This document shows positions 33,172-50,573 of a stretch of 64,000 nt of DNA, in pieces (position 1 is the first letter of the stretch; every line of letters begins with the position of its first letter). Both the position numbers and the translations under genes were made by a program. Below the pieces are notes generated by a model, which saw nothing but the letters and a program-made list of their open reading frames with translations, made no database searches and had not been told where the DNA came from. Origin of the DNA: Sulfurimonas sp. (GTDB lineage Bacteria; Campylobacterota; Campylobacteria; Campylobacterales; Sulfurimonadaceae); assembly GCA_026988245.1 (NCBI GenBank), contig JALSLR010000014.1, positions 6,660 to 70,659 of the forward strand. Direction: 5' to 3'.

Positions 33172-33561
33172 ATGGAGCATATTAATACTGCAAATCCGTA
33201 CTTCGGTGTATTTGTACTATTCGTTGTAACTTTTGGTGCTTTTATTGGTACTACGGTGATTGCAAGACTTGCATCCCGTGCCTTAGCACGTAAAGATAGC
33301 GAAAAAATTAAACTCTCAGTATATGAGTGTGGACCAGAAATAACAAAACAACCAAATAGAGTATCACCTCAGTTTTACCTATTTGCCTTACTGTTTTTAC
33401 TTTTTGATGTGGAAATTATCTTTATGTTCCCTTGGGCAGTGGATTATAAGGCATTAGGTATGTTTGGCCTTGTTGAGATGCTAATGTTTATAGCATTGTT
33501 AGCAATTGGTTTCGTATATGCATGGAAAAAAGGAGCGCTTGAATGGCACAACATAAAGTAA
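33172..33561 (+). CDS. nuoA: NADH-quinone oxidoreductase subunit A
   Basis: 'YECG', '[14 protein letters not shown]', 'WKKGALEW'. Confidence 0.95.
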
Positions 33562-34052
33562 ATTATACACAAGATGGTGGACTTCCAGTCGCACTAACAA
33601 GTATTGATAAAATTGTAAACTGGGGGCGTTCAAACTCTATATGGGCATTAACTTATGGTCTTGCTTGTTGTGGTATTGAGATGATGGCTTCTGGGGCTTC
33701 ACGTTATGACTTTGATAGATTTGGAACTATCTTTAGAGCATCACCTCGTCAAGCAGATGTTATGATAGTTGCTGGAACTTTGACAAAAAAACACGCTGAA
33801 TTCATTAAGCGTTTATATGATCAAATGACTGAACCAAGATGGGTAATCTCTATGGGTTCATGCGCAAATACTGGTGGAATGTTTAATACATATGCAACAG
33901 TACAGGGTGTTGATAGAATCATCCCTGTTGATTTGTATCTTCCTGGTTGTGCACCACGTCCTGAAACGCTTCAGTATGGTGTGATGCTGCTTCAAAAGAA
34001 GATTCGTGCTAACAAAGCTGGAAATGCGCAAAAGCCAAAAAGGTTGATGTAA
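33543..34052 (+). CDS. nuoB: NADH-quinone oxidoreductase subunit B
   Basis: 'GLACCGIEM', 'SPRQAD', 'MGSCA', 'PGCAPRPE'. Confidence 0.97.
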
Positions 34053-34858
34053 TGAGAACCTATACAAACAAAAAAAATGTACAAGCTAAACCTTACTATA
34101 CAGATAGATTCTGGAAAGCACCTCAAGTTGCAAAGTATGAAGTAGAATCAGATGAAGTTTTTGCTGCAGATTTAGCTGCTATAAAAGCAAAATTTCCTGT
34201 AAGCGATGCTTTTATTCAAGTTGAGCAGATGACAGTATGGATAAATGCTTCGGATATCTACGGTGTATTAGAACTTATGCGTGATGAACTTGCTTATACA
34301 CAACTTTCAGAGATGAGCGCTATTGACTTTATAGAACAACGTGATGAATTTGAAATCTTTTATCAGATGTTAAGTATGACAAAACGTAAGCGTATCCGTA
34401 TCAAATATACTATTAAAAACGGACAAGCAGTTGATTCGGTTGAGAAACTATTTCGTAGTGCAGACTGGTCTGAACGTGAGATGTTTGACATGTTTGGTAT
34501 CGAAGCGAATGCCCATCCATTTATGAAGCGTATCCTTATGCCTTATGACTGGCAAGGCTATCCACTTCTTAAAACTTACCCACTCCAAGGGGATGAGTTT
34601 GCAGCTTGGTATGAAGTAGATAAGATTTATGGAAAAGAAGCAAGAGAAGAGATTGGACCTGAAATTCGTGATACATCTACTATAGACAGATACGATTCAG
34701 AGCGTTTTGCTAAACTTGGACATGAGGTACCTAAAGGTACGGAGATTACAGGTGATGAACCTAAAAATGAACAAAACTACCAAGAAGAAGGTGGTGTATT
34801 CTTGATTAAAAAATTCGACAAAGATAGCTCAAAAGTTATCGATGATCCTCAAAGATAG
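34052..34858 (+). CDS. nuoC: NADH-quinone oxidoreductase subunit C
   Basis: 'ADWSEREMFDMFGI', 'RILMPYDWQGYPLLK'. Confidence 0.95.
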   Translation: MRTYTNKKNVQAKPYYTDRFWKAPQVAKYEVESDEVFAADLAAIKAKFPVSDAFIQVEQMTVWINASDIYGVLELMRDELAYTQLSEMSAIDFIEQRDEFEIFYQMLSMTKRKRIRIKYTIKNGQAVDSVEKLFRSADWSEREMFDMFGIEANAHPFMKRILMPYDWQGYPLLKTYPLQGDEFAAWYEVDKIYGKEAREEIGPEIRDTSTIDRYDSERFAKLGHEVPKGTEITGDEPKNEQNYQEEGGVFLIKKFDKDSSKVIDDPQR

Positions 34859-34868
34859 GTGGTAAAAT

Positions 34869-36110
34869 ATGGCACAGGTAAAAAATAGACTATCCCCATT
34901 TTTTGAAAATATTACATTTGATAGAGAAGATAATGAACTTATTTTAAACTTCGGACCACAGCATCCATCTGCTCACGGTCAGTTACGTTTAATGCTTCAT
35001 TTACAACAAGAACAAATTGTAAAAGCGCATCCAGATGTTGGGTACCTTCACCGTGGTATGGAGAAGATGGCAGAAAACATGATTTATAATGAGTTTATGC
35101 CTACAACAGATCGTATGGACTATATCGCTTCAAGTTCAAACAACTATGGTTTTGCACTTGCAGTTGAAAAACTTGTTGGCTTAGAAGTTCCTCGTCGTGC
35201 AAAAGTTATCCGTATGATGCTTTTGGAGATAAATAGGCTTATGTCTCACCTCTTTTGGTTAGCTACTACGGCGCTTGATATTGGTGCGATGACAATCTTC
35301 TTATTTGCATTTCGTGAGCGTGAATACTTGATGGATATCATCGAGGGTTACTGTGGAGCTCGTTTAACACATGCAGCTATCCGTATCGGTGGAGTGCCTT
35401 TAGATATACAAGACACTTTCATCTCTCAGCTCAAAACATTTTTAGACAAGCTTCCTCAAAATATTAAAGATTATGAAGACCTTCTTGATCAAAACCGTAT
35501 CTGGTTAATGAGAATGGAAGAAGTTGGAGAGATTTCAACTGAGATGGCACTTTCTTGGGGTTGTACAGGTCCAATGCTTAGAGCATCAGGAGTGAAGTGG
35601 GACATTCGTAAAGAGGAACCATATGAACTTTATGATGAAGTAGAGTTTGATGTGCCTTGGTCAGATAAAGGTGATAACTATGCTCGTTATCGTATATATA
35701 TGCAAGAGATGCGTGAGAGTGCAAAAATTCTTTATCAAACTATAGATATGTATGACGAGTGTGTAAAAAAAGGAGAGACTGAACTTATGGCTCATTCTCC
35801 TCAATATATCTCAGCTCCTAAGTTAGATATTATGACGCAAAACTACTCTTTAATGCAACACTTTGTGCTTGTAACTCAGGGTATGAGACCTCCTGTTGGA
35901 GAGGTCTATGTTGCAACTGAATCACCAAAAGGTGAGCTTGGTTTCTTTATCAATTCTCAAGGGGGAGCGTATCCTTACAGACTTAAGCTTCGTGCGCCAT
36001 CTTTTTGGCATACTGGTATTTTAACTGACCTATTACCTGGTCATTATATTCCAGATGTTGTTTCTATCATAGGAACAACAAATATTGTATTTGGGGAAGT
36101 GGACAGATAA
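34869..36110 (+). CDS. nuoD: NADH-quinone oxidoreductase subunit D
   Basis: '[11 protein letters not shown]', 'GYLHRGMEK', 'ESPKGE', 'IVFGEVDR'. Confidence 0.97.
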
Positions 36111-36334
36111 TGAAAAGATATGATTTAAGACACTTAAAAGACAACTATGAACCTCGTATGAAAGAGATTTTAGACGAGCATAAGGCTGGTGAAGTAGCTA
36201 TATTTTTATTTGAGATTGGAGATTTTACTCCTATTCAAAACTCTGCTGATTTAGTAAAAGAGTGTGGCTACGAGCTAATGAATTCACTTAAATTCAACGA
36301 AGTCGACTGGACTATCGTTGTTAAAAAAGGGTAA
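36110..36334 (+). CDS. nuoX: Campylobacterota-specific small complex I subunit (NuoX / Cj1575c-like, in place of NuoE)
   Basis: 74 aa, 'MKRYDLRHL', 'LFEIGDF', 'NSLKFNEVDWT'. Follows nuoD. Confidence 0.75.
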   Translation: MKRYDLRHLKDNYEPRMKEILDEHKAGEVAIFLFEIGDFTPIQNSADLVKECGYELMNSLKFNEVDWTIVVKKG

Positions 36335-36344
36335 GGTGTAAGTT

Positions 36345-38384
36345 TTGAGTAAAGTATATTTCTCGACTTGGCGCGATGAGCAGATCAACAATATTGGTAA
36401 AGCTGAAGAAGATTGGGCGGAATCTGCTTATAATCTTCCAGCACAATATGACGAGCATGCAAGTTCTAAAGCGTTTATTGGTTGGGATGGTGTAGCTCTT
36501 TTTGATCCAGATATAGATGTTGTAAAGCTTGCAACTGAGTATGCACACCAATACCAAGAGTATTCTGAAGCATGTGGAAGATGTGCACCTGGTAGATGGG
36601 GTGGACGAATTTTATATGACTTACTAGATAAAATTGCTCGTGGAGAGGGAAGTGTCGCTGACATGGACCACTTAAAAGAGATTGGTAAGTCTATGCAACT
36701 CACATCTAAATGTGAGATAGGTAAGACCGTCCCAAATCCTTTAATAGATTTAATGACACACTTTGAAGATACATTTTTAGAGTGCATAAACGAGCAAAAA
36801 CCGTCAAAGCATTACCACGAAGAGGTGGATTATATAGCTAAGATTACAGCACCATGTATGGATGCTTGTCCATCTCATGTTGATATTCCTGCTTATATAG
36901 AGGGTGTTCGTGATGTTCGTCTTGATGATGCACTTCGTGCTACTCGGCAAACTATGCCACTCGCGCATACTTGTGGTCGTGTATGTCCACATCCATGTGA
37001 AGATGAATGTCGTCGTTCCAACTTAGATGAGTCCATAGCAATTATGGAGTTAAAACGCCTTGGTGCTGATTATGAGAGTGATCATGACTTAGGTTTTTTT
37101 CATCCTGGTAAAGGTAAAAAGAAAAAGCCAAATGGTAAAAAAGTTGCCGTTATTGGTGCTGGTCCTGCAGGACTTACTACTGCATACTATCTAGCATTAG
37201 AGGGTGTTGAAGTTGATTGTTATGAAGCACTTCCAGTTCTTGGTGGTGAGGTTACTGTTGGTGTCCCAGAGTACCGTATGCCTTGGGATAAATATGCTCA
37301 AGATATAGAAGCAGTAAGAGACTTAGGCGTAAACTTTATCGTTAATCATGCTGTAACTGCAGATGAGATGCGTGAGTTTGAAACAAGCTATGATGCTACG
37401 ATGATAGCATCAGGTACTAGAATATCTAAAAAAGTTCGCTGTGATAATGAACGTCCAGAGATACAAGGGTATTGGGGTGCTATTGATTTCCTTGACTGGG
37501 TAAATCTTTATGAAAAATTTGATATCACTACACCTGAAGATGTGCAAAAGCAACAAATGTTACCTAGTAACTTTGTAGATTTAAAAGGTAAAACATTAGC
37601 CTGTGTTGGTGGTGGATTTACCTCTATGGATGTCGTTCGTTGTGCGATTCGTGCAGGTGCTAAACGTGTAGTTATGTTTTATCGCCGTGATGAAAAAACT
37701 ATCATTCGTAATACTACTTATGAAGAGTATCACGAAGCAGTTGAAGAGGGCGTAGAGTTTATCTTTCATTCTGCGGTTGCTAAGATGAATGATGAAGATG
37801 ATGTTCTTAAATCTCTTGACATTGATAAGTTTGAATTAGTACCAGACCCAAATGGTGGTCGTGCGCAACTTGTAAAAATCGATGGAGCAAGTGAGACTAT
37901 TGAGTTTGATTATCTTATCCCCGCTGTTTCTCAATCTGCTGATTTAAAGTTCTTACCAGAGGAGTGGGAACTTGAGATGACTTCATGGGCTACTATAAAA
38001 ACGAATGGTGTTGATTATATGACATCTCGTAAGGGTATCTTTGCATCAGGGGATTGTGAATATGGTCCTATGACTATTGTTAACGCAGTTGGTCAAGCTA
38101 AACGTGCAGCTTCTGTAATAAGTAGATACATTCATACAGGTGAGATAACTATCACTGATGATGAAATCATGGAAGACCATCTTCGTAAGATGAAAGTCTA
38201 TGATAAAAAAGAAAAAATTACTGGATGGTTACCTGGAGTTCCTCGTCAACATTCAGAAGTTTTACATGTAGATATTCGTAAATACAACAATGAAGAAGTG
38301 AACTTTGGTTTTACAAAAGAACAAGCGCAAAGTGAAGCTGAGCGTTGTATGCGTTGTTATTACATCGCTATGGTAGCGAAGTAG
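36345..38384 (+). CDS. FAD/Fe-S NAD(P)H oxidoreductase: NuoF-type Fe-S domain fused to a GltD-like domain (SfrB-like)
   Basis: 'EACGRCAPGR...C', 'CMDACP', 'CGRVCPHPCEDEC', FAD motif 'VIGAGPAG', dinucleotide motif 'VGGGFTSMD' with 'YRR', C-terminal 'RCMRC'. Confidence 0.85.
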   Translation: MSKVYFSTWRDEQINNIGKAEEDWAESAYNLPAQYDEHASSKAFIGWDGVALFDPDIDVVKLATEYAHQYQEYSEACGRCAPGRWGGRILYDLLDKIARGEGSVADMDHLKEIGKSMQLTSKCEIGKTVPNPLIDLMTHFEDTFLECINEQKPSKHYHEEVDYIAKITAPCMDACPSHVDIPAYIEGVRDVRLDDALRATRQTMPLAHTCGRVCPHPCEDECRRSNLDESIAIMELKRLGADYESDHDLGFFHPGKGKKKKPNGKKVAVIGAGPAGLTTAYYLALEGVEVDCYEALPVLGGEVTVGVPEYRMPWDKYAQDIEAVRDLGVNFIVNHAVTADEMREFETSYDATMIASGTRISKKVRCDNERPEIQGYWGAIDFLDWVNLYEKFDITTPEDVQKQQMLPSNFVDLKGKTLACVGGGFTSMDVVRCAIRAGAKRVVMFYRRDEKTIIRNTTYEEYHEAVEEGVEFIFHSAVAKMNDEDDVLKSLDIDKFELVPDPNGGRAQLVKIDGASETIEFDYLIPAVSQSADLKFLPEEWELEMTSWATIKTNGVDYMTSRKGIFASGDCEYGPMTIVNAVGQAKRAASVISRYIHTGEITITDDEIMEDHLRKMKVYDKKEKITGWLPGVPRQHSEVLHVDIRKYNNEEVNFGFTKEQAQSEAERCMRCYYIAMVAK

Positions 38385-38395
38385 GGGGTGGGTAG

Positions 38396-40585
38396 ATGAT
38401 TAAGTTTTTTATTGATTCTAAAGAAGTTACTGCTAAGAAGGGTGAATCTATCTTAGAAGTAGCTCGTCGCGAAGATATCTACATCCCTACTATGTGCTAC
38501 CTACCAAAAGCGACAGCGATAGCATCATGTCGTATGTGTAGTATTGAAGTACAAGGGCAAGAGGGTTTTGTACTTTCTTGTAATACTCCTCCAGTTGAAG
38601 GTATCAATGTTATAACAAACTCAGATTCACTCTACCATGAACGTCAAAATATTATGAAGCTCTATAATGTAAACCATCCTTTACAATGTGGAGTTTGTGA
38701 CAAATCTGGTGAGTGTGATTTACAAAACAAAACTTTAGAGTTTGATGTTGGTGAACAAGATTTTGCAGTTAGAGACCAAGCTCGTAAAAAGAAAAAATGG
38801 GGTATCCATACATATGACCCAGCTTTATGTATACTTTGTGAAAAGTGTGCAACTGTATGTAATGAAACAGTAGGTAATGAAGCTCTTTTTATTAAGCCTG
38901 GTGGTTATAAATCTCACATAGAGATAGATTTGTCTAACTGTATCCAGTGCGGTGAGTGTATCTCTGTTTGTCCAGTTGGAGCCATGGCTTCTACAGACTT
39001 CAAGTACACTTCAAATGCATGGGAACTTGATAAGGTGCCTTCCTCTTGTGCACATTGTTCAAGCGCATGTTCGCTTAACTATGAGTCAAAAGATGGCACT
39101 ATTATGCGTGTAACAAATGAGTCTGACTTCTCTTCACTATGCGGTGCTGGAAGATTTGGCTTTGACTTTGAGAATAGAGTTTTAAATAAAGATGAAAATG
39201 CATTTAATGAAGCTATTGAGAGTTTTAAACGCGCACAAAATGTTGTTTTTAGCTCTTTTATTACAAATGAAGAAGCATATATCCTTAACGAACTCAAGAA
39301 AAAGCTAGGCTTCAACCTAGTAAATGAAGATGCTCGTCTTTTTGGAGAGTTTATGAAAAACTTCTCAACTACTGCAAGCGAATCACTTTATAATGCAACT
39401 ATCGATGATCTAAAAATTAGTGACTTCATCATAAGTATTGGTTGTTCTATAGAGAGTGATAATCCTATGATTAAATTCGCAGCATCTCAAGCTGTGAAAA
39501 ACAAAAAAGCATGGGTGGCATCTATAGCACCAGTCGTTGAACATGATATATCTAATGTAGTGAGTCAGTATATAAACAATGAAGTTGGTAGTGAAGAGGC
39601 GGCTTTAGCGATGATAACTGATACTTTTATAGAAGATAAAGCCTCGCAACAAACATTTTTTGACTCTCTTGATTTAGGTTATTTGAGTGGAGAGAGCAAT
39701 ATAAGCGAAGAAGAGTTAGATCTATTAAAAACTAAATTTGCACGAAAACTTAATCCTATTTTAGTTATAGGCGAAGATGTTATCAATCACCCTCGGGCTA
39801 AAAATATAGCTTTACTAGCAGGATACTTACAAAAAAGTGAACTTTTTAAAGTTATTATAGTCCCACCATCTACAAATACCTTAGGCGTAAGTCTTATTTG
39901 TGATTTAGATAAGCCACAAGATGGTTTTAGTGTTGGTTATAATGCTCCAGCAGACTTCACACTCAGTGCAAAAGGTTCTGGAGATTTAGATATGCCAGCC
40001 TTAAATCAACAAGAGGGGACTTTTGTAAATATAGATAAAGATTTAGTGGTATTAAATGCAGCTATCAAACATCATGGGTATGAACTTAACGATATAGCGA
40101 ATGCACTTGGAGTTGAGAGTGAGAATATCATAGACTATACATCTAAGCTAGGTTTTAAAACAATAGAGTTTGATGACCTAGATAACTACTATGATAATGT
40201 AGGGAATGCCTACCGTGGATATAAAATAGAGTCTAAGAAAAATAGAAAAAAAGCAACATTAGATGAAGTAGAAGAGTTAGCAGAATATAATGGAAGTGTT
40301 GTTTATGCTAGGAATCCGTTAAGACAGTTCTCTTCTTTTACAAAAGACTGTAAACAGTTAGATGCAAAACTAGAATTAGTTGGTTCAGAACAATTTGCCT
40401 TAGCATCAAAAATCAAATCGGGAGACCATGTAAAATTTAGCGTAGATAATGTTGAATTTAGTAGAGTGTTTAAGTTAGATAAGCACATGAAAGGTACGGT
40501 TGCATATAACCCAACTTTCGATATGGATTTAAAATCATCAGGCTATAGATACAATCAAGTCAAATTAGAGGTTATAAATGAGTAG
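38396..40585 (+). CDS. nuoG: NuoG-like Fe-S subunit, paralog 1
   Basis: [2Fe-2S] 'CY..ASCRMC..SC', 'NHPLQCGVCDKSGEC', 'CILCEKCATVC', 'CIQCGECISVCP', 'CAHCSSAC..C'. Confidence 0.85.
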   Translation: MIKFFIDSKEVTAKKGESILEVARREDIYIPTMCYLPKATAIASCRMCSIEVQGQEGFVLSCNTPPVEGINVITNSDSLYHERQNIMKLYNVNHPLQCGVCDKSGECDLQNKTLEFDVGEQDFAVRDQARKKKKWGIHTYDPALCILCEKCATVCNETVGNEALFIKPGGYKSHIEIDLSNCIQCGECISVCPVGAMASTDFKYTSNAWELDKVPSSCAHCSSACSLNYESKDGTIMRVTNESDFSSLCGAGRFGFDFENRVLNKDENAFNEAIESFKRAQNVVFSSFITNEEAYILNELKKKLGFNLVNEDARLFGEFMKNFSTTASESLYNATIDDLKISDFIISIGCSIESDNPMIKFAASQAVKNKKAWVASIAPVVEHDISNVVSQYINNEVGSEEAALAMITDTFIEDKASQQTFFDSLDLGYLSGESNISEEELDLLKTKFARKLNPILVIGEDVINHPRAKNIALLAGYLQKSELFKVIIVPPSTNTLGVSLICDLDKPQDGFSVGYNAPADFTLSAKGSGDLDMPALNQQEGTFVNIDKDLVVLNAAIKHHGYELNDIANALGVESENIIDYTSKLGFKTIEFDDLDNYYDNVGNAYRGYKIESKKNRKKATLDEVEELAEYNGSVVYARNPLRQFSSFTKDCKQLDAKLELVGSEQFALASKIKSGDHVKFSVDNVEFSRVFKLDKHMKGTVAYNPTFDMDLKSSGYRYNQVKLEVINE

Positions 40586-43067
40586 CAATATTACAATTAC
40601 AATAGATAACCAAGAGGTACAAACTACAGAAGGTGAGTTTATATTAAATGCCGCACGTGCTAACGATATATATATCCCTGCAATTTGTTATTTAACAAGA
40701 TGTAGTCCAACTCTTGCGTGTAGAATATGTTTAGTTGAAGCTGATGGTAAACAAGTGTATGCTTGTAATGCCAAAAGTAAAGAGGGTATGCAAATTACCA
40801 CAACGACTGAAACCATAGAAAAAGAGCGCCGTGCTATTATGGAAGTGTATGATGTAAATCATCCTCTTCAATGTGGTGTGTGTGATCAATCAGGTGAGTG
40901 TGAACTTCAAAACTATACCCTAGAACTTGGTGTTGATGCACAAAGCTATAGCGTAAAAGATGTTCAAAGAGACTCTATAGACTGGGGACACTTACACTAT
41001 GATCCAGGTCTATGTATCGTTTGTGAGAGATGTTCCACAGTATGTAAAGATATGATAGGTGATAATTCTCTTAAAACTGTACCACGAAATGCAGACCCAC
41101 TTGACGCTGAATTTAAAGAGACTATGCCTAAAGATGCCTATGCAATGTGGAATAAGCTCAACAAGTCACTTATTGGTTTAACATCAGGTGAAGAGATGCT
41201 TGACTGTACATCATGTGGTGAGTGTGCAGCTGTTTGTCCTGTTGGTGCATTAGTGGATACTCACTTTATGTATAAGTCGAATGCTTGGGAGCTAGAACAG
41301 GTTCCTGCAACGTGTGGACATTGTTCTGCTGGTTGTCAAATCACTTACGATGTGAAGCATACAAGTGTGGAGAATGCAGATAAAAAAATCTATCGTGTGA
41401 TGAATGAGTGGAACTATGTATCTCTTTGTGGTGCTGGTAGATATGGCTTTGACTATGAAAACAGAGTTGATGCTAAGGATGAAAAAGCATTTACAAATGC
41501 AATTGAAGCTTTTAAACGAGCTGATAGCATAGAGTTTACAAGTACTATCACAAATGAAGAAGCGTATATCTTACAATCTTTAAAAGAAAAACTTGGCGTG
41601 AAACTTGTAAATAATGAGGCAAAAGCATTTCAAACTTTCTTAAAAGACTATAGCGCAATAAGTGGTACTAAACTTTATGGAAACAACTTAGAAGCTACTC
41701 ATAATTCTAATTTTGTAATATCTGTAGGATCTGCTCTTAAGAGTGATAACCCAAATGCGAGATATGCTTTAAATAACTCTATGACTGTTAATAAGGGTGC
41801 AGGAATTTACTTCCACCCTGTGAATGACCCGGTTATAGAAGGTTTAGCGAAGGGTATGATGAGTGTGTACCATGCGCCACTTCAAGAAGAAGCGGTTTTA
41901 TACCTTATTCTCGACTTATTTGCTAACAAAGAAGAGTTACCAAGTGAAATCGTAGACTACCTAGCATCATTTCACAGCGAAAAAACTATAACAGTTGAAG
42001 AGACTATCAAAGAAAAAGTTGTAGAAATCGTTAAAGAGATGAAAATCAACGAAGAGACTGGAGAAGAGGAAGAAGTAGAAGTAGAAAAATCGAAAATGGT
42101 TCCTAAAAAAATCTCTAAAGAAGTTGTAGTAGATAACAACCGTCTATTAGAGATACTTGGTGCTGATGAAAATTTTATAGAAAGTTTAGAAAAAAATCTT
42201 AAAAAGAAAGATACTTTTGCACTTATCGCTGGACCAGACTTATACACACATCCAAATAGTAAAAACTTAGCACGCTTACTTGGTCTTATAGAGAGATACT
42301 CTGCATTTGAAATTACTATGATTCCAAGCTTAACAAACACCTTAGGTGTAAGCCTCATTTGTGAACTAGATGATGAAGCAGAGGGATATACAGTTGGGTA
42401 TAACACAAAAGCAGATTTCACATTATCAGCTCTTGGAGATGGCGATCTAGATATGCCAGCTATCAATCAACAAGAGGGGACACTTACTTCTATAAATAAG
42501 AGAGTGAACCCTACAAATGCGGCACTTCCATATAATGGATATGTGTTAAACGATATAGCAAATGCTTTAGGACTCAATGCAGAGTTAACAGTTGATTATA
42601 CGGCATCTCTTCCAACTGCAAATGGATTTAAAGCGCTTGCTTTTGATACCCTTCCTAATCATTATGACAATGATGGTACGGAGCATCGTGGGTATCTTCT
42701 TGATGTTGTGAAGGTGAGAAAGTCGCCTAAACAAAATGTAGAGCCTATAAAAGAAGATATATTAGAGGGGACTCTTATCTATCTTGCAAATCCAGTAAGA
42801 CAGTTTAGTGACTTTACAAATAAAGCTACAAATTTAGACGAAGTAAGTGGTATCTATATGAGTGCTGATTACTTACAAGAGAGTGACTTCAACGAAGGTG
42901 ATATGGTAAAAGTAAAAACTGATAAAGGGGAACTTACAGCATCTGTTGTAAGTGACAATAAGATTAGTGGAAACATCGTGATTTTACCAACGTTTGATTC
43001 AAATTTAAACTCAGAGGCTCTCTTTAGTGGTTATCGCTTTAGTTCAGCTTCGATAGAAAAGGTGTAA
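40578..43067 (+). CDS. nuoG: NADH-quinone oxidoreductase subunit G, paralog 2
   Basis: Same full Fe-S motif set, 'ACRICLVE', 'CGHCSAGC'. 829 aa. Confidence 0.9.
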   Translation: MSSNITITIDNQEVQTTEGEFILNAARANDIYIPAICYLTRCSPTLACRICLVEADGKQVYACNAKSKEGMQITTTTETIEKERRAIMEVYDVNHPLQCGVCDQSGECELQNYTLELGVDAQSYSVKDVQRDSIDWGHLHYDPGLCIVCERCSTVCKDMIGDNSLKTVPRNADPLDAEFKETMPKDAYAMWNKLNKSLIGLTSGEEMLDCTSCGECAAVCPVGALVDTHFMYKSNAWELEQVPATCGHCSAGCQITYDVKHTSVENADKKIYRVMNEWNYVSLCGAGRYGFDYENRVDAKDEKAFTNAIEAFKRADSIEFTSTITNEEAYILQSLKEKLGVKLVNNEAKAFQTFLKDYSAISGTKLYGNNLEATHNSNFVISVGSALKSDNPNARYALNNSMTVNKGAGIYFHPVNDPVIEGLAKGMMSVYHAPLQEEAVLYLILDLFANKEELPSEIVDYLASFHSEKTITVEETIKEKVVEIVKEMKINEETGEEEEVEVEKSKMVPKKISKEVVVDNNRLLEILGADENFIESLEKNLKKKDTFALIAGPDLYTHPNSKNLARLLGLIERYSAFEITMIPSLTNTLGVSLICELDDEAEGYTVGYNTKADFTLSALGDGDLDMPAINQQEGTLTSINKRVNPTNAALPYNGYVLNDIANALGLNAELTVDYTASLPTANGFKALAFDTLPNHYDNDGTEHRGYLLDVVKVRKSPKQNVEPIKEDILEGTLIYLANPVRQFSDFTNKATNLDEVSGIYMSADYLQESDFNEGDMVKVKTDKGELTASVVSDNKISGNIVILPTFDSNLNSEALFSGYRFSSASIEKV

Positions 43068-43070
43068 TAT

Positions 43071-44051
43071 ATGGAAACAGCATATTTAATAGAAACAGTC
43101 ATTAAGATTGTAATAATTTTACTTGTATTTTCTGCATTAGCAGGTTTTGGTACATACTTTGAAAGAAAGATTCTTGCATTTATGTCAAGACGCCTTGGGC
43201 CAATGAATGTTGGTCCTTATGGACTTCTTCAAATTGCAGCAGATGGTATTAAACTTTTTACAAAAGAAGATATCATTCCTACTAATGTAGTAGGTCGTAT
43301 CTTTAAGATAGCTCCAGTTATCACTGCCGCAACTGCATTTATGGCAGCAGCAGCTATCCCATTTTTGCCAGCATTTACTATTGGTAGTTATGAAGTTAAC
43401 CCGATAGTATCGGATATTAATATTGGTATTCTTTACATCTTAGGTGTAATGGGTATTGGTTTATATGGTCCGTTACTTGGTGGTATGGCGAGTGCAAATA
43501 AATTTTCACTTTTATCTGCAGCAAGAAGTGCAGCTGTCTTTATCTCGTATGAGGTAGTGACAGGGCTATCAATCTTAGCACCTATTATGATAGTTGGTTC
43601 ATTATCACTTATTGATTTTAACAATTATCAAGCTACGCATGGTTGGTTAGTATTTTCTCAGCCAGTAGCATTTATTCTTTTTTGGATAGCAGCGTTTGCT
43701 GAGACGGGGCGTACACCATTTCACCTCGTTGCAAATGATCATGAGATTATTGATGGTTTTGGGACTGAGTACTCTGGGATGAGATGGGGACTTTTCTTCA
43801 TCGGTGAGTACGCAAATATGTTCTTTATCTCTTTTGTTATTCCACTGCTTTTTTTAGGTGGTTTTGGAGATGGTAGCGTAATGGGTGCTTTTGCATTCTT
43901 AGGTAAGATGGCATTTTTCTTCTTCTTTTTCTTATGGACAAGAGCTGCATGGCCAGATGTAAGACCAGATCAACTTATGATGTTGTGTTGGAAAATTCTA
44001 ATGCCAATAGCCGTGATTAACATAGTTATCACGGGTATTGTGATGATGTAA
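43071..44051 (+). CDS. nuoH: NADH-quinone oxidoreductase subunit H
   Basis: 'ERKILA', 'ADGIKLFTKE', 'AETGRTPF', 'TEYSG'. Confidence 0.96.
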   Translation: METAYLIETVIKIVIILLVFSALAGFGTYFERKILAFMSRRLGPMNVGPYGLLQIAADGIKLFTKEDIIPTNVVGRIFKIAPVITAATAFMAAAAIPFLPAFTIGSYEVNPIVSDINIGILYILGVMGIGLYGPLLGGMASANKFSLLSAARSAAVFISYEVVTGLSILAPIMIVGSLSLIDFNNYQATHGWLVFSQPVAFILFWIAAFAETGRTPFHLVANDHEIIDGFGTEYSGMRWGLFFIGEYANMFFISFVIPLLFLGGFGDGSVMGAFAFLGKMAFFFFFFLWTRAAWPDVRPDQLMMLCWKILMPIAVINIVITGIVMM

Positions 44052-44054
44052 GGG

Positions 44055-44678
44055 GTGATGATGAATCAAGAACAATTTAATGATAGAAATGTATCAGATG
44101 ATGGCTACTTAAAGGTAGATATAGCTGATTATCCAACTACGCCTTGGGGTAGGTTCAAGCGTGTAGTCGATAGAACTTTTAAATTAGAGCTTTTTGTAGG
44201 TCTATGGGTAGTTTTAAGAGAGATGATTAAGTTCGATATACATACTGTAAAGTATCCAGAAGAAAAGATGCCTATAGGTCCTCGTTATCGTGCAGTGCAT
44301 GAGATGAAGAGATTATGGGAAAGTGATACTGAAAGATGTATTGGTTGTGGTCTTTGTGAAAAGATTTGTATCTCTAACTGTATTAAGATGGATACAAAAA
44401 TAGATGAAAATTCTCGTAAAGAGGTTTCAGAGTACACTATTAACTTGGGTCGTTGTATTTTCTGTGGTTATTGTGCGGAGGTTTGTCCAGAGTTAGCAAT
44501 TGTACATGGTGGGGAGTATGAAAATGCATCTGATCAACGTGAACATTTTGTTGATTTCGCTCAAATGCTTACACCGATTGACACGATGAAAGAGGGCAAA
44601 CAATTAGAGTTTGAAGGTTTTGGTGCTATTACACCACATGAAGATGAGCGTGTTAAAAAAACACCTCTAGCATATTAA
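44055..44678 (+). CDS. nuoI: NADH-quinone oxidoreductase subunit I
   Basis: 'CIGCGLCEKIC' and 'CIFCGYCAEVCP'. Confidence 0.96.
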   Translation: MMMNQEQFNDRNVSDDGYLKVDIADYPTTPWGRFKRVVDRTFKLELFVGLWVVLREMIKFDIHTVKYPEEKMPIGPRYRAVHEMKRLWESDTERCIGCGLCEKICISNCIKMDTKIDENSRKEVSEYTINLGRCIFCGYCAEVCPELAIVHGGEYENASDQREHFVDFAQMLTPIDTMKEGKQLEFEGFGAITPHEDERVKKTPLAY

Positions 44679-44683
44679 GGAGT

Positions 44684-45271
44684 TTGGGTATGTTTGAAGC
44701 TATTGCTTTTTATCTGTTTGCTTTTTTAACTATTGCGATGTTTTACATTACTGTAACTACATCACAAGCGTTATACGCTTTAACAGCGTTAGCCGCAGGG
44801 ATGATTTTTATATCGGCATTTTTCTTTATATTGGGTGCTGATTTTTTAGGTGCAGTACAGATAGTTGTTTATTCTGGTGCTGTAATGGCTCTTTACTCTT
44901 TTGGTATGATGTTTTTTGATACGACAAGAGAGTTACACGAGAAACAAGGAAACAAGTATATAGTGGTTGGTCTTGCAACTATAGCTGCTGTTTTGGTTGT
45001 TCTTATTTTCTCTGCTCCAATACTAAGTAATAATATTACTGCTCTTTACCCAATGGTTGAAGGTGCTGGTAATACTCAAGAGGTTGGTATGGTCTTATTT
45101 ACTAAGTACCTTGTTCCTTTTGAAGTAGCTGCCATTATGTTACTAGTTGCTATGATAGCTGGTATTGTATTAGCAGGTAAAAAAATGGATGCATCATTAA
45201 CTTTAATGACTGAAGCAGAAATTAAAGATATGCGTAAACAAAAAGCTAATAAAACAAAGGAAATCGTATGA
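44684..45271 (+). CDS. nuoJ: NADH-quinone oxidoreductase subunit J
   Basis: 'QIVVYSGAVMAL', 'PFEVAAIMLLVAMIAGI'. Confidence 0.94.
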   Translation: MGMFEAIAFYLFAFLTIAMFYITVTTSQALYALTALAAGMIFISAFFFILGADFLGAVQIVVYSGAVMALYSFGMMFFDTTRELHEKQGNKYIVVGLATIAAVLVVLIFSAPILSNNITALYPMVEGAGNTQEVGMVLFTKYLVPFEVAAIMLLVAMIAGIVLAGKKMDASLTLMTEAEIKDMRKQKANKTKEIV

Positions 45272-45576
45272 TGGAAATTGGATTAAACCACTATCTTGTA
45301 CTCTCAACTATCCTTTTTAGTATTGGTTTAGTGGGTGTAATGAGAAGAAAAAATCTTTTAATATTATTTTTTGCTACTGAGATTTTATTAAACTCTGTAA
45401 ATATCGCCTTTGCGGCGATTTCACACTACTATGGTGATTTAACTGGTCAAATGTTTGCATTTTTTGTGATTGCAATTGCGGCTAGTGAAGTTGCTGTTGG
45501 ACTTGGTCTTTTGATTGTATGGCATAAACGTTATAACAATATCGACTTAGATTACTTAAATACGATGAAAGGATAA
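45268..45576 (+). CDS. nuoK: NADH-quinone oxidoreductase subunit K
   Basis: 'EILLNSVN', 'IAAxEVAVGL'. Confidence 0.95.
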   Translation: MMEIGLNHYLVLSTILFSIGLVGVMRRKNLLILFFATEILLNSVNIAFAAISHYYGDLTGQMFAFFVIAIAASEVAVGLGLLIVWHKRYNNIDLDYLNTMKG

Positions 45577-45577
45577 A

Positions 45578-47506
45578 ATGATGGAAATGTTTTTATATAT
45601 AGCACTATTTTCACCATTAGTAGGCTCTTTGTTTGCTGCATTATTTAGCATGTCTCCAAAGACACTATGGGCTGGAGTAGTTCCAAGTATGTTGCTTGGA
45701 CTATCTCTCATTAGTTCAACTATCCTTTTGTTGATGGTTCTTAAAACTGGGACTACTCTACATGTCGAGATGATGACATGGATGGCTACTGGAGATTTAT
45801 ATATCCCTTTTGGCTTCGTAGTTGATCAAGTTTCTATTACTATGATGATGGTTGTAACTTTAGTTTCAACTGTTGTGCATGTGTATGCTATAGGTTATAT
45901 GGATCACGATAAAGGCTTTAATCGTTTCTTTGCATGGTTATCAGCTTTTGTTTTTTCAATGATGATACTTGTTATGAGTGATAACTTTGCAGGTCTTTTC
46001 ATTGGTTGGGAAGGTGTTGGTCTTTGTTCATGGGGTCTTATTGGATTCTGGTATCATAAAGAGAGTGCTACTTGGGCAGCAAATGAAGCTTTTATTATGA
46101 ATCGTATCGCTGACCTTGGTATGCTTATCGGTATCTTTTTAATTTACTGGAACACAGGAAGCCTTCAATATGACGTAGCATTTCCTGCTTTTGCAGCTCT
46201 AGATACATCTACTTTGACTTGGATAGGTATCTTCTTATTTGTTGGTGCTATGGGTAAATCAGCTCAGTTCCCACTTCATACTTGGCTTGCAGATGCGATG
46301 GAGGGACCAACTCCTGTTTCTGCACTTATTCACGCAGCTACAATGGTAACGGCTGGTGTATACTTAGTAGTACGTTCAAATGAACTGTTTGCACTTATCC
46401 CTAATGTAGGTTTATTTATCGCGAGTCTTGGTGCTTTTGTTGCAATTTTTGCAGCTACTATGGCACTAGTAAATCGTGATATTAAAAGAGTTATCGCTTA
46501 CTCTACACTTTCGCAGTTAGGGTATATGTTTGCAGCTGCTGGTCTTGGTGCTTACTGGGTTGCGTTGTTTCACCTTATGGCTCATGCATTCTTTAAAGCA
46601 CTGCTGTTCCTTGGTGCTGGTAATGTTATGCATGCTATGCATGATGAACTAGATCCCTTTAAGATGGGTGGACTTGGGAAGCATATGAAAGCTACTATGA
46701 TTCTTATGACTTTAGCATCAGTAGCCTTAGCTGGAATCTTTCCACTTGCAGGGTTCTTCTCAAAAGATTTGATTCTTGAGGTTGCTTTTGTGGATCATCA
46801 TTTCCTTATCTATAGTGTGCTTCTTTTAACAGCTGGTTTAACTGCATTTTATTCATTTAGAATTATTGCGCTTATTTTCCATGGGGAAGATAGACATACT
46901 GCACTTGGTTTTCACCCACACGAAGCGTACAAGTTTATGTTGTGGGCTGTATCACCTTTAGCTATTTTAGCTGTAATTGCAGGATTTACTTTAAAGGGTG
47001 GATACTTTGAGATGGTAACAATGCTTCTTCCATCGACTGAGTACCATGTACATAACCATACTACGTACTGGATTATGACGATAGGGACACAGCTATTTGT
47101 ACTTATAGCAATCTTCTTTGCCTATAAAAAATATATAGCTAAAGGGATTAAAGTTCCTGATGGTACAAGTAAAATGGAAAATAGTTTTGGATATAAATTA
47201 CTTATCAATCAGTACTATATTCCATACTTTTATGAAGAGTATCTAGTAAAACCATACAGAGAACTTTCTACTGTATTGTGGGAAAAAATTGATATGAAAG
47301 TTGTTGATGCAACTGTTGATGGAATTGCTAATGTGTTCTACTCTACAGGTGAGGCAACAAGAGGGATGCAAAGTGGAAATTTATCTACTATGCTTAAATG
47401 GATGGTAGCTGGCTTAATTGGACTATTATCATTAGCTGTGGTTTTTGGACTAGCGGCTAGACACTCTGATAGTATAGTTTCTATACTATCTGGTTTAGGA
47501 GTTTAA
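45578..47506 (+). CDS. nuoL: NADH-quinone oxidoreductase subunit L
   Basis: 'GWEGVGLCSW', 'GKSAQFPLHTWLADAMEGPTPVSALIHAATMVTAG'. Confidence 0.97.
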   Translation: MMEMFLYIALFSPLVGSLFAALFSMSPKTLWAGVVPSMLLGLSLISSTILLLMVLKTGTTLHVEMMTWMATGDLYIPFGFVVDQVSITMMMVVTLVSTVVHVYAIGYMDHDKGFNRFFAWLSAFVFSMMILVMSDNFAGLFIGWEGVGLCSWGLIGFWYHKESATWAANEAFIMNRIADLGMLIGIFLIYWNTGSLQYDVAFPAFAALDTSTLTWIGIFLFVGAMGKSAQFPLHTWLADAMEGPTPVSALIHAATMVTAGVYLVVRSNELFALIPNVGLFIASLGAFVAIFAATMALVNRDIKRVIAYSTLSQLGYMFAAAGLGAYWVALFHLMAHAFFKALLFLGAGNVMHAMHDELDPFKMGGLGKHMKATMILMTLASVALAGIFPLAGFFSKDLILEVAFVDHHFLIYSVLLLTAGLTAFYSFRIIALIFHGEDRHTALGFHPHEAYKFMLWAVSPLAILAVIAGFTLKGGYFEMVTMLLPSTEYHVHNHTTYWIMTIGTQLFVLIAIFFAYKKYIAKGIKVPDGTSKMENSFGYKLLINQYYIPYFYEEYLVKPYRELSTVLWEKIDMKVVDATVDGIANVFYSTGEATRGMQSGNLSTMLKWMVAGLIGLLSLAVVFGLAARHSDSIVSILSGLGV

Positions 47507-47509
47507 TAG

Positions 47510-49063
47510 ATGTTAGATCATATCTTATCGATTTTAATTTTCTTTCCAGCACTCGCAGCAGTGCTTGGTTTTGTAGTTCACAAAGATAGTATGCGTGCTT
47601 ATGGTGTTGCTGTTGCAACTATTGAGTTTGTGCTAGCTTTATGGCTTTGGTTCGCCTTTGATAATAGTGTATCTGGTATGCAGTTTATGGAACACTTACC
47701 TCTCATTCCAGCATTTGGAATTAACTATATTTTAGGTGTAGATGGTATTAGTCTATTTATAGTTATCTTAGCAGCATTTTTTACAATGATTGGGATAGCT
47801 TCACTAACAGATACTCCAAATGTTAAAAATATGATTATTACCTTGTTATTTTTACAGATGACAATGGTTGGTGTGTTTTTAGCACTTGATGCAATGGTCT
47901 TTTATGTGTTTTGGGAACTTTCACTCGTGCCAATGCTATATATCATTGGTGCATGGGGTGGTCCTAAGCGTATATATGCATCTGTTAAGTTTTTCTTATA
48001 TACATTTGCAGGTTCACTTGTGATGCTAGTGGGTGTACTGTTTATGGCATACTTTTATTATCAAGCAACTGGTCAATGGTCTTTTGCAATACTTGATTGG
48101 TATAGACTTATACTTCCATTTTCTTTTCAGTTATGGTTATTTGCTGCATTTTTTATCGGGTTTGCTATTAAGGTTCCTATGTTTCCATTTCATACTTGGT
48201 TACCATATGCGCATGGTCAGGCACCAACGATTGGTTCTGTGATACTTGCTGCAATTTTGTTGAAAATGGGTACATACGCATTTATCCGTTTTTCACTTCC
48301 ATTGTTTCCAGATGCGTCAACATATTTTATGTATCCTATAGCTATTTTAGCGATAATTATGATTATATACACAGCTATGGTAGCATATGCTCAAAAAGAT
48401 GTGAAGCAAGTTGTTGCTTACTCTTCGGTATCTCATATGGGTGTTATCATACTTGGAACTTTTGCTTTAAATGTTGAAGGTATCTCAGGAAGTATTTTCC
48501 TTATGATTGCGCATGGTGTGGTTTCAGGTGCACTCTTCTTACTTGTAGGTGTTATCTATGATAGACGTCATACGAAGCTTATGAGTGAGTTTGGTGGTTT
48601 AGCATCTGTCATGCCTAAGTTTGCTACTATCTTTGGTATCATGATGATGGCTTCTGTTGGTTTACCTTTAACAATTAACTTTGTGGGTGAGTTCTTATCA
48701 CTACTTGGTTTTTATCAGCAGTCACACATCTTAACTCTTTTAGCAGGAATTGCTATTATAGTTGGTGCTATCTATATGTTAGCAGCCTACAAAAAGATGT
48801 TTTTTGGTGAAGTTACAAAAGAGGAAAATAAAAATCTTCCAGATGTAAATAAACGTGAATTGATTGCGCTTATCCCTTTAGTAATTATTACTATTTGGTT
48901 AGGTATATATCCTAAACCTATTTTAGCACCTATCAACACAAGCGTAGAATCAGTCGTGCAACTCATGCATGACAAAGCTGTTACTGATGATGCTAAAGCA
49001 AGAATCCCTAACCTTATTCAAGGTGTAGAGATTACAAGAACTACGCAAAAGGGAGGTCACTAA
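47510..49063 (+). CDS. nuoM: NADH-quinone oxidoreductase subunit M
   Basis: 'FWELSLVP', 'KVPMFPFHTWLPYAH', 'LLKMG'. Confidence 0.96.
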   Translation: MLDHILSILIFFPALAAVLGFVVHKDSMRAYGVAVATIEFVLALWLWFAFDNSVSGMQFMEHLPLIPAFGINYILGVDGISLFIVILAAFFTMIGIASLTDTPNVKNMIITLLFLQMTMVGVFLALDAMVFYVFWELSLVPMLYIIGAWGGPKRIYASVKFFLYTFAGSLVMLVGVLFMAYFYYQATGQWSFAILDWYRLILPFSFQLWLFAAFFIGFAIKVPMFPFHTWLPYAHGQAPTIGSVILAAILLKMGTYAFIRFSLPLFPDASTYFMYPIAILAIIMIIYTAMVAYAQKDVKQVVAYSSVSHMGVIILGTFALNVEGISGSIFLMIAHGVVSGALFLLVGVIYDRRHTKLMSEFGGLASVMPKFATIFGIMMMASVGLPLTINFVGEFLSLLGFYQQSHILTLLAGIAIIVGAIYMLAAYKKMFFGEVTKEENKNLPDVNKRELIALIPLVIITIWLGIYPKPILAPINTSVESVVQLMHDKAVTDDAKARIPNLIQGVEITRTTQKGGH

Positions 49064-49064
49064 T

Positions 49065-50573
49065 ATGAGCCCAGTAAATGTTTCTATGGAGTCACTCAAC
49101 TTAGTGACTCTTGCACCAATGTTAATTCCTATCCTTGGCGCTTTATTAATTTTAATCGTTGACCTGTTTAAAGGTGGACTAGATAAAAGCTTATATGTAA
49201 TGTTAAGTTTACTCTTTCTTTTCATCGACTTTAATGCCCTGTTAAATTCTGCAGGAGTATTTACACAAAGTGGAACGATTATGGGTGTATTTGATGTGAT
49301 GCTCATAGATGGTTTAGCTATCATCTCTCAGTTCATCATTGTTGGTGCATCTATGCTTTTTATTCCACTAGCACTTACGCATAAGCGTTTTCATGAGTTC
49401 GCATACCCTGAGTTCTTTGCACTTTTCTTATTTATGATTGGTGGATTCCAATTTATGGTTTCAACTGATAACTTAATTCTTGTTTTTGTAGGTCTTGAAA
49501 CTGCTTCTTTAGCACTTTATACACTTATAGCTATGCACAACCGTGAGAAAAGTTTTGAAGCAGCTATCAAGTACTTTACTATGGGTGCCTTAGCTGCAGG
49601 TTTTTACTCTTTTGGTTCAATGGTGTTTTATGCACTTACTGGCAGTATAGAGATTAATCAAATCGCAGCGGTATTAAATGCTAATAATTATGCAGATATT
49701 GGCTTCGTACTTATAGCAGTTGTATTTATGTTAGCATCATTTGGTTTCAAACTCTCAATGGTACCATTTCACACTTGGACACCAGATGTTTATGAAGGTT
49801 CTTCCGCTGCACTTGCTGGATATATGTCAATCGTACCTAAGATAGCTGCCTTTGTTGTATCTATGCGTATCTTTGAATTTTTAATTCATAGTGGTGTAGT
49901 TTGGCTTGAAGTAGTCCTTTACATCATGGTTGTAGTAACGATGACCGCTTCAAATATTTGGGCACTTGTGCAAACAGATGTAAAGCGTATGCTTGCATAC
50001 TCATCAATCTCTCATGCAGGTTTTGTTATGGCTGCTATCCTCATAGGGACGACACAGTCTAACTCAGCACTGTTTTTGTACTGGATACTTTTTAGTTTTA
50101 CTAACCTAGGATCATTCTCAATGTTATGGATAAGTAGACAAAAAAATCTTCCTGCACATCAAAGTTCAGATCATTCATTTAGTAAATTCTCTGGTATGAT
50201 AAAAACATCACCAATGGCAGCATCTATTATGGCACTTTTTATGTTAAGTTTAGCGGGTCTGCCTCCTTTTGCTCTATTTTGGGGTAAGATGTATATGATT
50301 AGTTCAGCTGTGACAGGTGGGTATACTGTTTTAGCACTAATTATGGCACTTAACTCAGCGATAGCTGGGTACTATTACTTAAAACTTATAGTATATATGT
50401 TTATGATGGAGCCACATAGAGAAAGTCTTGGTGGAGAGGTATATGTATCAAACGCAACTGGTGCACTTAAAACTATCATTGGTATTGCGACACTAGGAAC
50501 TATATTTGCTTTCTTAACAGTAAACCCAATACTTGAATTTGTGACAACATTCGTTTACAATAGCGGGTATTAA
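49065..50573 (+). CDS. nuoN: NADH-quinone oxidoreductase subunit N
   Basis: 'EAAIKYF', 'FKLSMVPFHTWTPDVYEG', 'KRMLAYSSISHAG'. Confidence 0.96.
   Translation: MSPVNVSMESLNLVTLAPMLIPILGALLILIVDLFKGGLDKSLYVMLSLLFLFIDFNALLNSAGVFTQSGTIMGVFDVMLIDGLAIISQFIIVGASMLFIPLALTHKRFHEFAYPEFFALFLFMIGGFQFMVSTDNLILVFVGLETASLALYTLIAMHNREKSFEAAIKYFTMGALAAGFYSFGSMVFYALTGSIEINQIAAVLNANNYADIGFVLIAVVFMLASFGFKLSMVPFHTWTPDVYEGSSAALAGYMSIVPKIAAFVVSMRIFEFLIHSGVVWLEVVLYIMVVVTMTASNIWALVQTDVKRMLAYSSISHAGFVMAAILIGTTQSNSALFLYWILFSFTNLGSFSMLWISRQKNLPAHQSSDHSFSKFSGMIKTSPMAASIMALFMLSLAGLPPFALFWGKMYMISSAVTGGYTVLALIMALNSAIAGYYYLKLIVYMFMMEPHRESLGGEVYVSNATGALKTIIGIATLGTIFAFLTVNPILEFVTTFVYNSGY

Follow-up and report, generated by a model that had tools for sequence, protein, structure and literature searches.

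A nuo operon with NuoX, an SfrB-like flavoprotein and two NuoG paralogues in a Sulfurimonas-like genome: a candidate NADP(H)- and ferredoxin-linked complex I

The 64,000-nucleotide stretch of Sulfurimonas DNA analyzed in this study (the window; contig JALSLR010000014.1 of assembly GCA_026988245.1) contains one 15-gene nuo operon for respiratory complex I at positions 33172–50573 of the + strand, with intergenic gaps of −19 to +11 nt and the order nuoA-B-C-D, nuoX, the gene for a 679-residue flavoprotein, nuoG1, nuoG2 and nuoH-N. We hold, with moderate confidence, that it encodes a complex I of the Sulfurimonas/Sulfurovum type that has a standard membrane arm and quinone module (Q-module), in which NuoE and NuoF are replaced by NuoX, an SfrB-like flavoprotein and a second NuoG (NuoG1), and which operates mainly in reverse, reducing NADP+ and probably ferredoxin. 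The host is a Sulfurimonas-like metagenome-assembled genome (MAG), 93.7% complete, whose 120 contigs amount to 2.19 Mb (~35% G+C). It has only this one nuo operon, and its flavoprotein is 79–92% identical to proteins named from Sulfurimonas or Sulfurimonadaceae. Both the layout of the operon and the functional hypothesis have already been published (McNichol & Sievert, bioRxiv 10.1101/717884) and are not new here. Absent from the passages of that preprint that were searched are a missing cysteine at the N3-type cluster site of the flavoprotein, the homology of NuoY with NuoG1 and an asymmetry between the two NuoG proteins at cluster N7.

The interval 36110–43067 consists of exactly four + strand genes, nuoX, the flavoprotein gene, nuoG1 and nuoG2; the open reading frames (ORFs) and domain profiles agree with the four-gene reading of this interval in an earlier note, which was made from the sequence alone. 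The flavoprotein and NuoG1 genes each follow a gap of 10–11 nt, and nuoG1 overlaps nuoG2 by 8 nt. The four genes and their parts are as follows.

36110..36334, + strand: nuoX, 74 residues, in place of NuoE (PF16514, E 4.5e-39)
36345..38384, + strand: 679-residue Fe-S flavoprotein (SfrB/NfnB-like "NuoF replacement"), TTG start (Pfam and NCBIfam domains)
36420..36794, + strand: NuoF C-terminal-like domain, flavoprotein residues ~26–150 (aligns with the C termini of HydB, NfnB(Bfu) and NuoF)
36846..37085, + strand: Fer4_20 domain of the flavoprotein (PF14691, E 1.5e-21)
37137..38138, + strand: FAD and NADP(H) Rossmann domains of the flavoprotein (Pyr_redox_2)
38396..40585, + strand: nuoG1, extra NuoG paralogue, 729 residues (epsilon-NuoG model PRK08493, 822 bits)
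39353..40582, + strand: C-terminal half of NuoG1, residues ~320–729, NuoY homologue (BLAST, hhalign and tree)
40578..43067, + strand: nuoG2, canonical Campylobacterota NuoG, 829 residues (PRK08493, 1184 bits, full length)

In the earlier note the flavoprotein had been read as the union of a NuoF-type Fe-S domain with a flavin adenine dinucleotide (FAD) domain resembling GltD, and the Pfam and NCBIfam profiles and the predicted fold concur. The Pfam domains are PF10589 (the NuoF 4Fe-4S region, residues 63–145), PF14691 (Fer4_20, residues 168–247) and Pyr_redox_2 (residues 265–585). Only this C-terminal PF10589 region of NuoF is present; the domain that binds flavin mononucleotide (FMN) and NADH, PF01512, is not. 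Residues 168–672 comprise a GltD/NfnB-type module with eight cysteines for two [4Fe-4S] clusters, namely C171, C175, C210, C214, C218, C222 and, at the C terminus, C668 and C671; the corresponding columns of alignment A1 are invariant with the exception of C210. The FAD motif, also invariant in the relatives, is G271xGxxG. A second glycine motif, G422-G-G424...D429, is followed by Y446-R447-R448, which aligns with Y310/R311/R312 of Thermotoga maritima NfnB, where the NADPH 2'-phosphate is bound; this motif and the YRR triplet are invariant in 26 full-length family members. From this match we infer specificity for NADPH, as the earlier note had supposed from the GGGxxxxD...YRR pattern. The PDB sequence matches include NfnA (9bov_A, 3e-73) and NfnB (4ylf_B, 5e-68). 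The AlphaFold model, calculated from a 22-sequence alignment, has a pLDDT (predicted local distance difference test) of 90.6, and its best Foldseek matches are the NADPH modules of NfnA (9BOV, 9N5U), StnC (8OH5) and NfnB (5JCA, 4YLF); NfnB, with which the earlier note had proposed a comparison, is matched in sequence and in predicted fold.

The N3-type site in the NuoF-like domain has an unusual composition that the earlier note had overlooked. The segment ACGRCAPGRWGG of the flavoprotein aligns with SCGKCxPCRxG of HydB, NfnB(Bfu) and NuoF, but only C77, C80 and C123 are present at the site, and the third cysteine of the motif is replaced by Gly83. Every Campylobacterota orthologue examined has the motif ACGRC(A/T)PG, with glycine fixed at the third cysteine position, and no conserved compensating cysteine was found among these orthologues; C147 was considered as a fourth ligand and rejected because it is not conserved in the clade. 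In contrast, the outgroup flavoproteins either keep CxxCxxC or have an extra cysteine. The Campylobacterota members examined therefore lack the four-cysteine N3-type site (CxxCxxC...C) of the SfrB/NADP-dependent formate dehydrogenase (NADP-FDH) beta family.

In other respects the flavoprotein is assigned to that family. An exhaustive profile search recovered one tight Campylobacterota cluster and then, after a gap, full-length relatives of ~650 residues at 30–40% identity, some of which carry the annotation "formate dehydrogenase (NADP+) beta subunit." These relatives align with the flavoprotein over residues 1–678 and share its architecture and N-terminal motifs. The likeness to Geobacter SfrB that the earlier note had proposed thus holds at the level of the family, by identity, architecture and motifs, with a Pelobacter MAG homologue (locus L037, 32% identity), which is followed by an SfrA-like gene, as a stand-in for G. 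sulfurreducens SfrB. The "AFIGWDG" motif, which the note had taken as a reminder of SfrB, is among the N-terminal motifs common to these relatives but is a general NuoF/HydB element, the conserved "GxxG" strand motif ahead of the N3 helix bundle. In unrelated bacteria, a flavoprotein of this type typically precedes a gene with a NuoG-like N terminus (~20 unrelated loci), and the SfrA-like partners match NuoG1 over residues 1–200 only. A Syntrophobacterales MAG (L036:6489-19940) has nuoABCD, an SfrB-like flavoprotein (652 residues, 35% identity), a single nuoG and nuoHIJKLMN, with no NuoX; therefore, the replacement of NuoEF by a flavoprotein module is not confined to Campylobacterota. Seven further loci (L038, L040, L043, L044, L046, L047 and L049) from diverse phyla, including an Asgard MAG, encode proteins of ~1030–1150 residues. 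Their last ~640 residues can be aligned with the N3-domain-plus-GltD part of the flavoprotein and are preceded by ~400 additional residues. These may be full NuoF-GltD fusions and, if so, possible precursors of the SfrB-type architecture.

NuoG1 and NuoG2 are 39% identical over their full lengths (hhalign E 5e-242), and NuoG1 has two deletions, at NuoG2 residues ~170–205 and ~440–540. Each has a complete set of 20 Fe-S ligands, for clusters N1b, N5, two [4Fe-4S] clusters (N4 and an extra one) and N7, consistent with the two Fe-S-rich NuoG proteins of the earlier note; in NuoG1 the clusters lie within residues 1–260. An extra [4Fe-4S] cluster beside N4 is known from Aquifex, and the best PDB match of NuoG1 is Aquifex NuoG (7q5y_A). 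The N7 ligands are C246, C249, C253 and C284 in NuoG2 and C218, C221, C225 and C249 in NuoG1. None of the 20 ligands varies among the 10 NuoG1 orthologues compared, whereas the four N7 ligands are lost (N, S, E or H instead) in 11 of the 24 NuoG2 orthologues, across both operon types. Because N7 is invariant in the one set and often lost in the other, the alignments suggest that the cluster is of importance to NuoG1, whereas NuoG2 can do without it. The proposal that NuoG1 is an imported SfrA or FdhA was rejected: it is a full-length paralogue of NuoG2, whereas the SfrA-like partners resemble only its N-terminal part. NuoG2 is the orthologue of the single NuoG in the operons of other Campylobacterota that have the order nuoX, nuoY, nuoG (X-Y-G operons).

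The C-terminal half of NuoG1 links the two operon types. In X-Y-G operons, nuoX is followed by a gene, at the position of Cj1574c, for a protein of 230–290 residues (NuoY), for which NuoG1 is the best BLAST match among the window proteins. This match is seen in Campylobacter, Helicobacter-like and other genomes, and the proteins of the Campylobacter locus are 94% identical to C. coli/C. jejuni proteins. The BLAST match comprises colinear segments (3e-7 and 1e-3), and hhalign aligns NuoY with columns 339–758 of NuoG1 at a probability of 100% (E 3.9e-56, 27% identity), as compared with E 6.6e-24 and 16% identity for NuoG2. One NuoY type matches the epsilon-NuoG model directly (5.8e-27), and the UniRef name "chain G-like" on a C. 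armoricus homologue indicates that the likeness to NuoG was already hinted at in annotation. In a tree of 239 shared columns, NuoG2 forms a clade (SH-like approximate likelihood-ratio test, SH-aLRT, 99) with NuoG1 and NuoY outside it. This quick tree also hinted at several independent truncations of NuoG1 to NuoY, but NuoY monophyly was not rejected (approximately unbiased (AU) test, p 0.44). On the profile and tree comparisons, NuoY is a derivative of NuoG1; therefore, the enzyme with the order X-flavoprotein-G1-G2 holds a counterpart of NuoX/NuoY together with an extra Fe-S and NADPH branch. The earlier note had reported no NuoY-like gene, which is correct for a free-standing nuoY but overlooks the homologous half of NuoG1. 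In one X-Y-G operon (L116; genome G098, genus g20), unlike the others, a BLAST search at 1e-4 detected no ORF resembling NuoY in the interval from nuoX (a 119-residue frame) to nuoG.

Of the 301 Campylobacterota species genomes sampled, 248 contain NuoX (PF16514), and none of 14 control genomes does; on this sampling, NuoX is a Campylobacterota-specific subunit. The flavoprotein orthologue is present in 67 of the 301, representing 30 of 57 genera and including all 24 genomes of the window's family. Orthologues at 64–92% identity hold the same operon position, and the order X-flavoprotein-G1-G2 is kept in every locus inspected. Several variants were seen. An ENA metagenome contig (L131:6525-15605) has an enlarged version, with a flavoprotein of 962 residues, NuoG1 of 1046 and NuoG2 of 1012; in this flavoprotein an insertion of ~300 residues separates the NuoF-C domain from Fer4_20. 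In three loci of one genus (L014, L015 and L017; family f4, genus g53), the NuoX-containing frame is 170–195 residues long, as compared with ~75 elsewhere, and NuoX may be extended or fused. A Helicobacteraceae-level relative (L121, genome G216) has the X-flavoprotein-G1-G2 operon with NuoG2 as two ORFs of 315 and 538 residues.

Neither NuoE (PF01257) nor the NuoF FMN domain (PF01512) was found anywhere in the 93.7%-complete host genome, which extends to the whole genome the absence of NuoE and NuoF described in the earlier note. Rnf/Nqr, PntB and a flavodoxin gene (PF00258) were likewise not detected in the host genome, and ATP-citrate lyase is present. Because no flavodoxin gene was found, the low-potential partner of the host complex I is likely ferredoxin rather than flavodoxin, and the flavodoxin port envisaged in the earlier note is unsupported in this organism. 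A TrxR-like gene at 54448–55389 was considered as a ferredoxin:NADP+ reductase and rejected as an ordinary TrxB. The sole paralogue of the GltD part of the flavoprotein in the genome (contig C78:22501-23727, 27% identity) is presumably a glutamate synthase small subunit.

In the mechanism that we propose, NADP(H) would exchange hydride with the FAD of the flavoprotein, and electrons would pass from the FAD through the two [4Fe-4S] clusters to the NuoF-type (N3-like) cluster domain. By analogy with SfrB-type flavoproteins and their NuoG-like partners, this domain would dock on the N-terminal Fe-S domain of NuoG1, from which the canonical wire would continue through NuoG2, NuoI and NuoB to menaquinone. 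The SfrAB-like NADP(H) module would be attached to complex I by the C-terminal domain of NuoG1 and by NuoX, and would either supply electrons to the NuoG2-NuoI-NuoB wire or draw them from it. These two parts also form the likely ferredoxin site because they match the NuoX/NuoY pair of C. jejuni that couples to a low-potential protein carrier. The enzyme would run mainly backwards, with the proton-motive force driving reduction of NADP+ and probably of ferredoxin, because the electrons of an autotroph that uses the reductive tricarboxylic acid (rTCA) cycle enter at the level of quinone and Rnf, PntAB and NuoEF were not detected. Standard potentials give an estimate of ~47 kJ per 2 e− for transfer from menaquinol (MKH2) to NADP+, which is affordable with 4 H+. 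Gene content, domains, cofactor motifs, conservation and homologies are evident from the sequences, whereas we infer the physical attachment of the module, the direction of operation, the ferredoxin branch and any coupling between the branches.

Several points weigh against this interpretation. By the same kind of estimate, reduction of ferredoxin by MKH2 lies at the thermodynamic limit of what 4 H+ per 2 e− can drive. The N3-like cluster, with three cysteines, may be a [3Fe-4S] cluster, oddly ligated or absent, any of which could break or retune the wire. The absences in the host genome are provisional rather than absolute because the genome is a MAG (~94% complete). No biochemical or structural work on any member of this group was found in the literature or the PDB, in keeping with the statement in the earlier note that no characterization was known, and the PDB contains no Campylobacterota complex I.

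Other functions can be envisaged for the same set of genes. A plain, linear and reversible NADPH:menaquinone oxidoreductase, in which the flavoprotein and NuoG1 merely lengthen the wire and there is neither a ferredoxin or flavodoxin port nor bifurcation, is possible but rather unlikely. It would agree with the behavior of FAD and two [4Fe-4S] clusters as a simple two-to-one-electron converter in GltD, DPD, SfrB and StnC-type modules, with the Syntrophobacterales operon, in which the flavoprotein accompanies a single NuoG and NuoX is missing, and with the lack of a flavodoxin gene. However, every flavoprotein-type operon keeps both NuoX and the half of NuoG1 that resembles NuoY, the corresponding parts of the C. 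jejuni enzyme are tied to flavodoxin coupling, the rTCA cycle requires reduced ferredoxin, and no Rnf was found. The gene arrangement bears on a different possibility, that the flavoprotein pairs with NuoG1 as an independent soluble NADPH oxidoreductase of the SfrAB kind, with ferredoxin or another acceptor, and that the two are only co-transcribed with the complex. Pairs of an SfrB-like protein and one resembling the NuoG N terminus are free-standing elsewhere (the Pelobacter locus and ~15 others), but here the pair is in the middle of the operon, with the short gaps and the overlap described above, in a position that is kept across 30 genera. Moreover, NuoG1 is, over its full length, paralogous to the NuoG of the complex itself rather than an SfrA import, and its C-terminal half persists as NuoY in X-Y-G operons. 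We consider a soluble enzyme improbable.

Flavin bifurcation of the FixABCX kind (with NADPH giving one electron downhill to menaquinone and another uphill to ferredoxin), or the published scheme in which 4 e− from 2 MKH2 pass to NADP+ plus 2 ferredoxins, is quite improbable. The FAD domain is homologous to that of NfnB, in which the NADPH-binding FAD bifurcates, and the two NuoG branches and the strict conservation of N7 in NuoG1 only might also be read in this way. Nevertheless, the operon has no NfnA-like high-potential partner, the sequence has no mark of a bifurcating site, and the nearest relatives by structure, StnC and NfnA-Bfu, do not bifurcate at the corresponding FAD and need NuoE/NuoF-like subunits that are lacking here. 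The name "formate dehydrogenase beta subunit" given by the Joint Genome Institute to orthologues, and the NADP-FDH-type betas within the family, might indicate an NADP-dependent formate dehydrogenase pair (FdhB/FdhA). This was rejected as very improbable on the composition of NuoG1, which scores 34 bits against the Fdh-alpha model TIGR01591 (cut-off 666) as compared with 822 bits against the epsilon-NuoG model and has no match to Molydop_binding (PF01568). A more elaborate history, which we regard as doubtful, is that complex I in the ancestor of the Campylobacterales had three ports, for menaquinone, NADP(H) and ferredoxin, with energetic coupling between an SfrAB-like NADPH branch (the flavoprotein and the Fe-S domain of NuoG1) and a ferredoxin site (NuoX and the C-terminal domain of NuoG1), by bifurcation or confurcation or by pmf (proton-motive force)-driven co-reduction of NADP+ and ferredoxin, and that the host-associated Campylobacter and Helicobacter kept only the ferredoxin/flavodoxin site as NuoG1 was trimmed to NuoY.

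The closest known system is the operon of S. denitrificans. In the McNichol & Sievert preprint, Suden_1824 is described as an NfnB-like NuoF replacement with a conserved YRR, and Suden_1823 and Suden_1822 are described as two NuoGs that differ in two regions. There, the composition of the operon is reported to be conserved in Sulfurimonas and Sulfurovum, the first notice of the layout is credited to Weerakoon & Olson 2008, and reverse electron transport driven by the proton-motive force, reducing NADP+ and ferredoxin for the rTCA cycle, is proposed. That hypothesis and the S. denitrificans expression data are in line with the interpretation given here. The guess in the earlier note that such operons had been noticed in Sulfurimonas and Sulfurovum was therefore right, and its branched complex I, working by reverse transport or bifurcation for the rTCA cycle, is in essence the hypothesis of the preprint. 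The gene order, the NfnB-like flavoprotein with YRR and the two NuoGs at ~36–39% identity are the same in both organisms, as are the two indels of the NuoG pair (~30 residues between cluster cysteines and ~70–100 residues in the C-terminal half). The two belong to the same genus-level clade, with orthologues ~80% identical and no essential difference; the operon described here is from another species.

More distant systems share parts of this assembly. The complexes of C. jejuni and Helicobacter pylori have NuoX, a NuoG of the NuoG2 type and the other subunits in common with it, and their NuoY corresponds to the C-terminal half of NuoG1, but operons of this type are without the flavoprotein and the Fe-S N-terminal half of NuoG1 and therefore have no NAD(P)H site. 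The NADPH-dependent SfrAB of Geobacter and the NADP-FDH pairs have the same flavoprotein architecture and an adjacent partner with a NuoG-type N terminus; here, in contrast, the partner is the complex's own NuoG paralogue, the pair is inside a nuo operon and the third N3 cysteine is lost. The Bfu-type bifurcating transhydrogenases StnABC and NfnABC (8OH5, 9BOV and 9N5U) provide the best sequence and fold matches for a GltD-like NADPH module on a NuoG-like scaffold, but there the module is an internal, fused part of the NuoG-like subunit and acts alongside FMN subunits of the NuoE/NuoF kind, which the host genome is without. NfnB of NfnAB (T. maritima 4YLF and Pyrococcus furiosus 5JCA) shares the FAD and NADPH domains, the two [4Fe-4S] clusters and the YRR triplet; as compared with NfnB, the flavoprotein has the extra N-terminal NuoF-type domain, and a cluster cysteine pair has moved to the C terminus (C668 and C671). 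A search confined to the operon found no NfnA partner (FNR-like, i.e. resembling ferredoxin:NADP+ reductase, with [2Fe-2S] and FAD).

The remaining genes of the operon encode the other subunits of the complex.

33172..33561, + strand: nuoA (PF00507; NCBIfam PRK08489, 209 bits)
33543..34052, + strand: nuoB, N2 cluster subunit (PF01058; NuoB model, 254 bits)
34052..34858, + strand: nuoC (PF00329; PRK08491, 382 bits)
34869..36110, + strand: nuoD (PF00346; TIGR01962, 568 bits)
43071..44051, + strand: nuoH (PF00146)
44055..44678, + strand: nuoI, clusters N6a and N6b (NuoI model, 336 bits)
44684..50573, + strand: nuoJ, K, L, M and N, membrane arm (contiguous ORFs; order matched to related loci by BLAST)

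A gene for a 796-residue protein with DUF7494 and tetratricopeptide repeats (window 50597–52987) starts 23 nt past nuoN in the same orientation and may be co-transcribed.

Chemolithoautotrophic Campylobacterota dominate sulfidic, dark environments. The source of the reduced ferredoxin and NADPH that their rTCA cycle consumes during growth on sulfur compounds is a standing question because the electrons of these compounds enter at the level of quinone or cytochrome, and the nuo operon is the leading candidate. If the proposed function is correct, this would be the first demonstration of a complex I that uses NADPH, maybe with two input/output ports, and the three-cysteine N3-like site offers a concrete spectroscopic test. 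The homology of NuoY with NuoG1 ties the operon to the Campylobacter and Helicobacter complex I, which depends on flavodoxin, and hints at where on the enzyme the protein carrier is bound.

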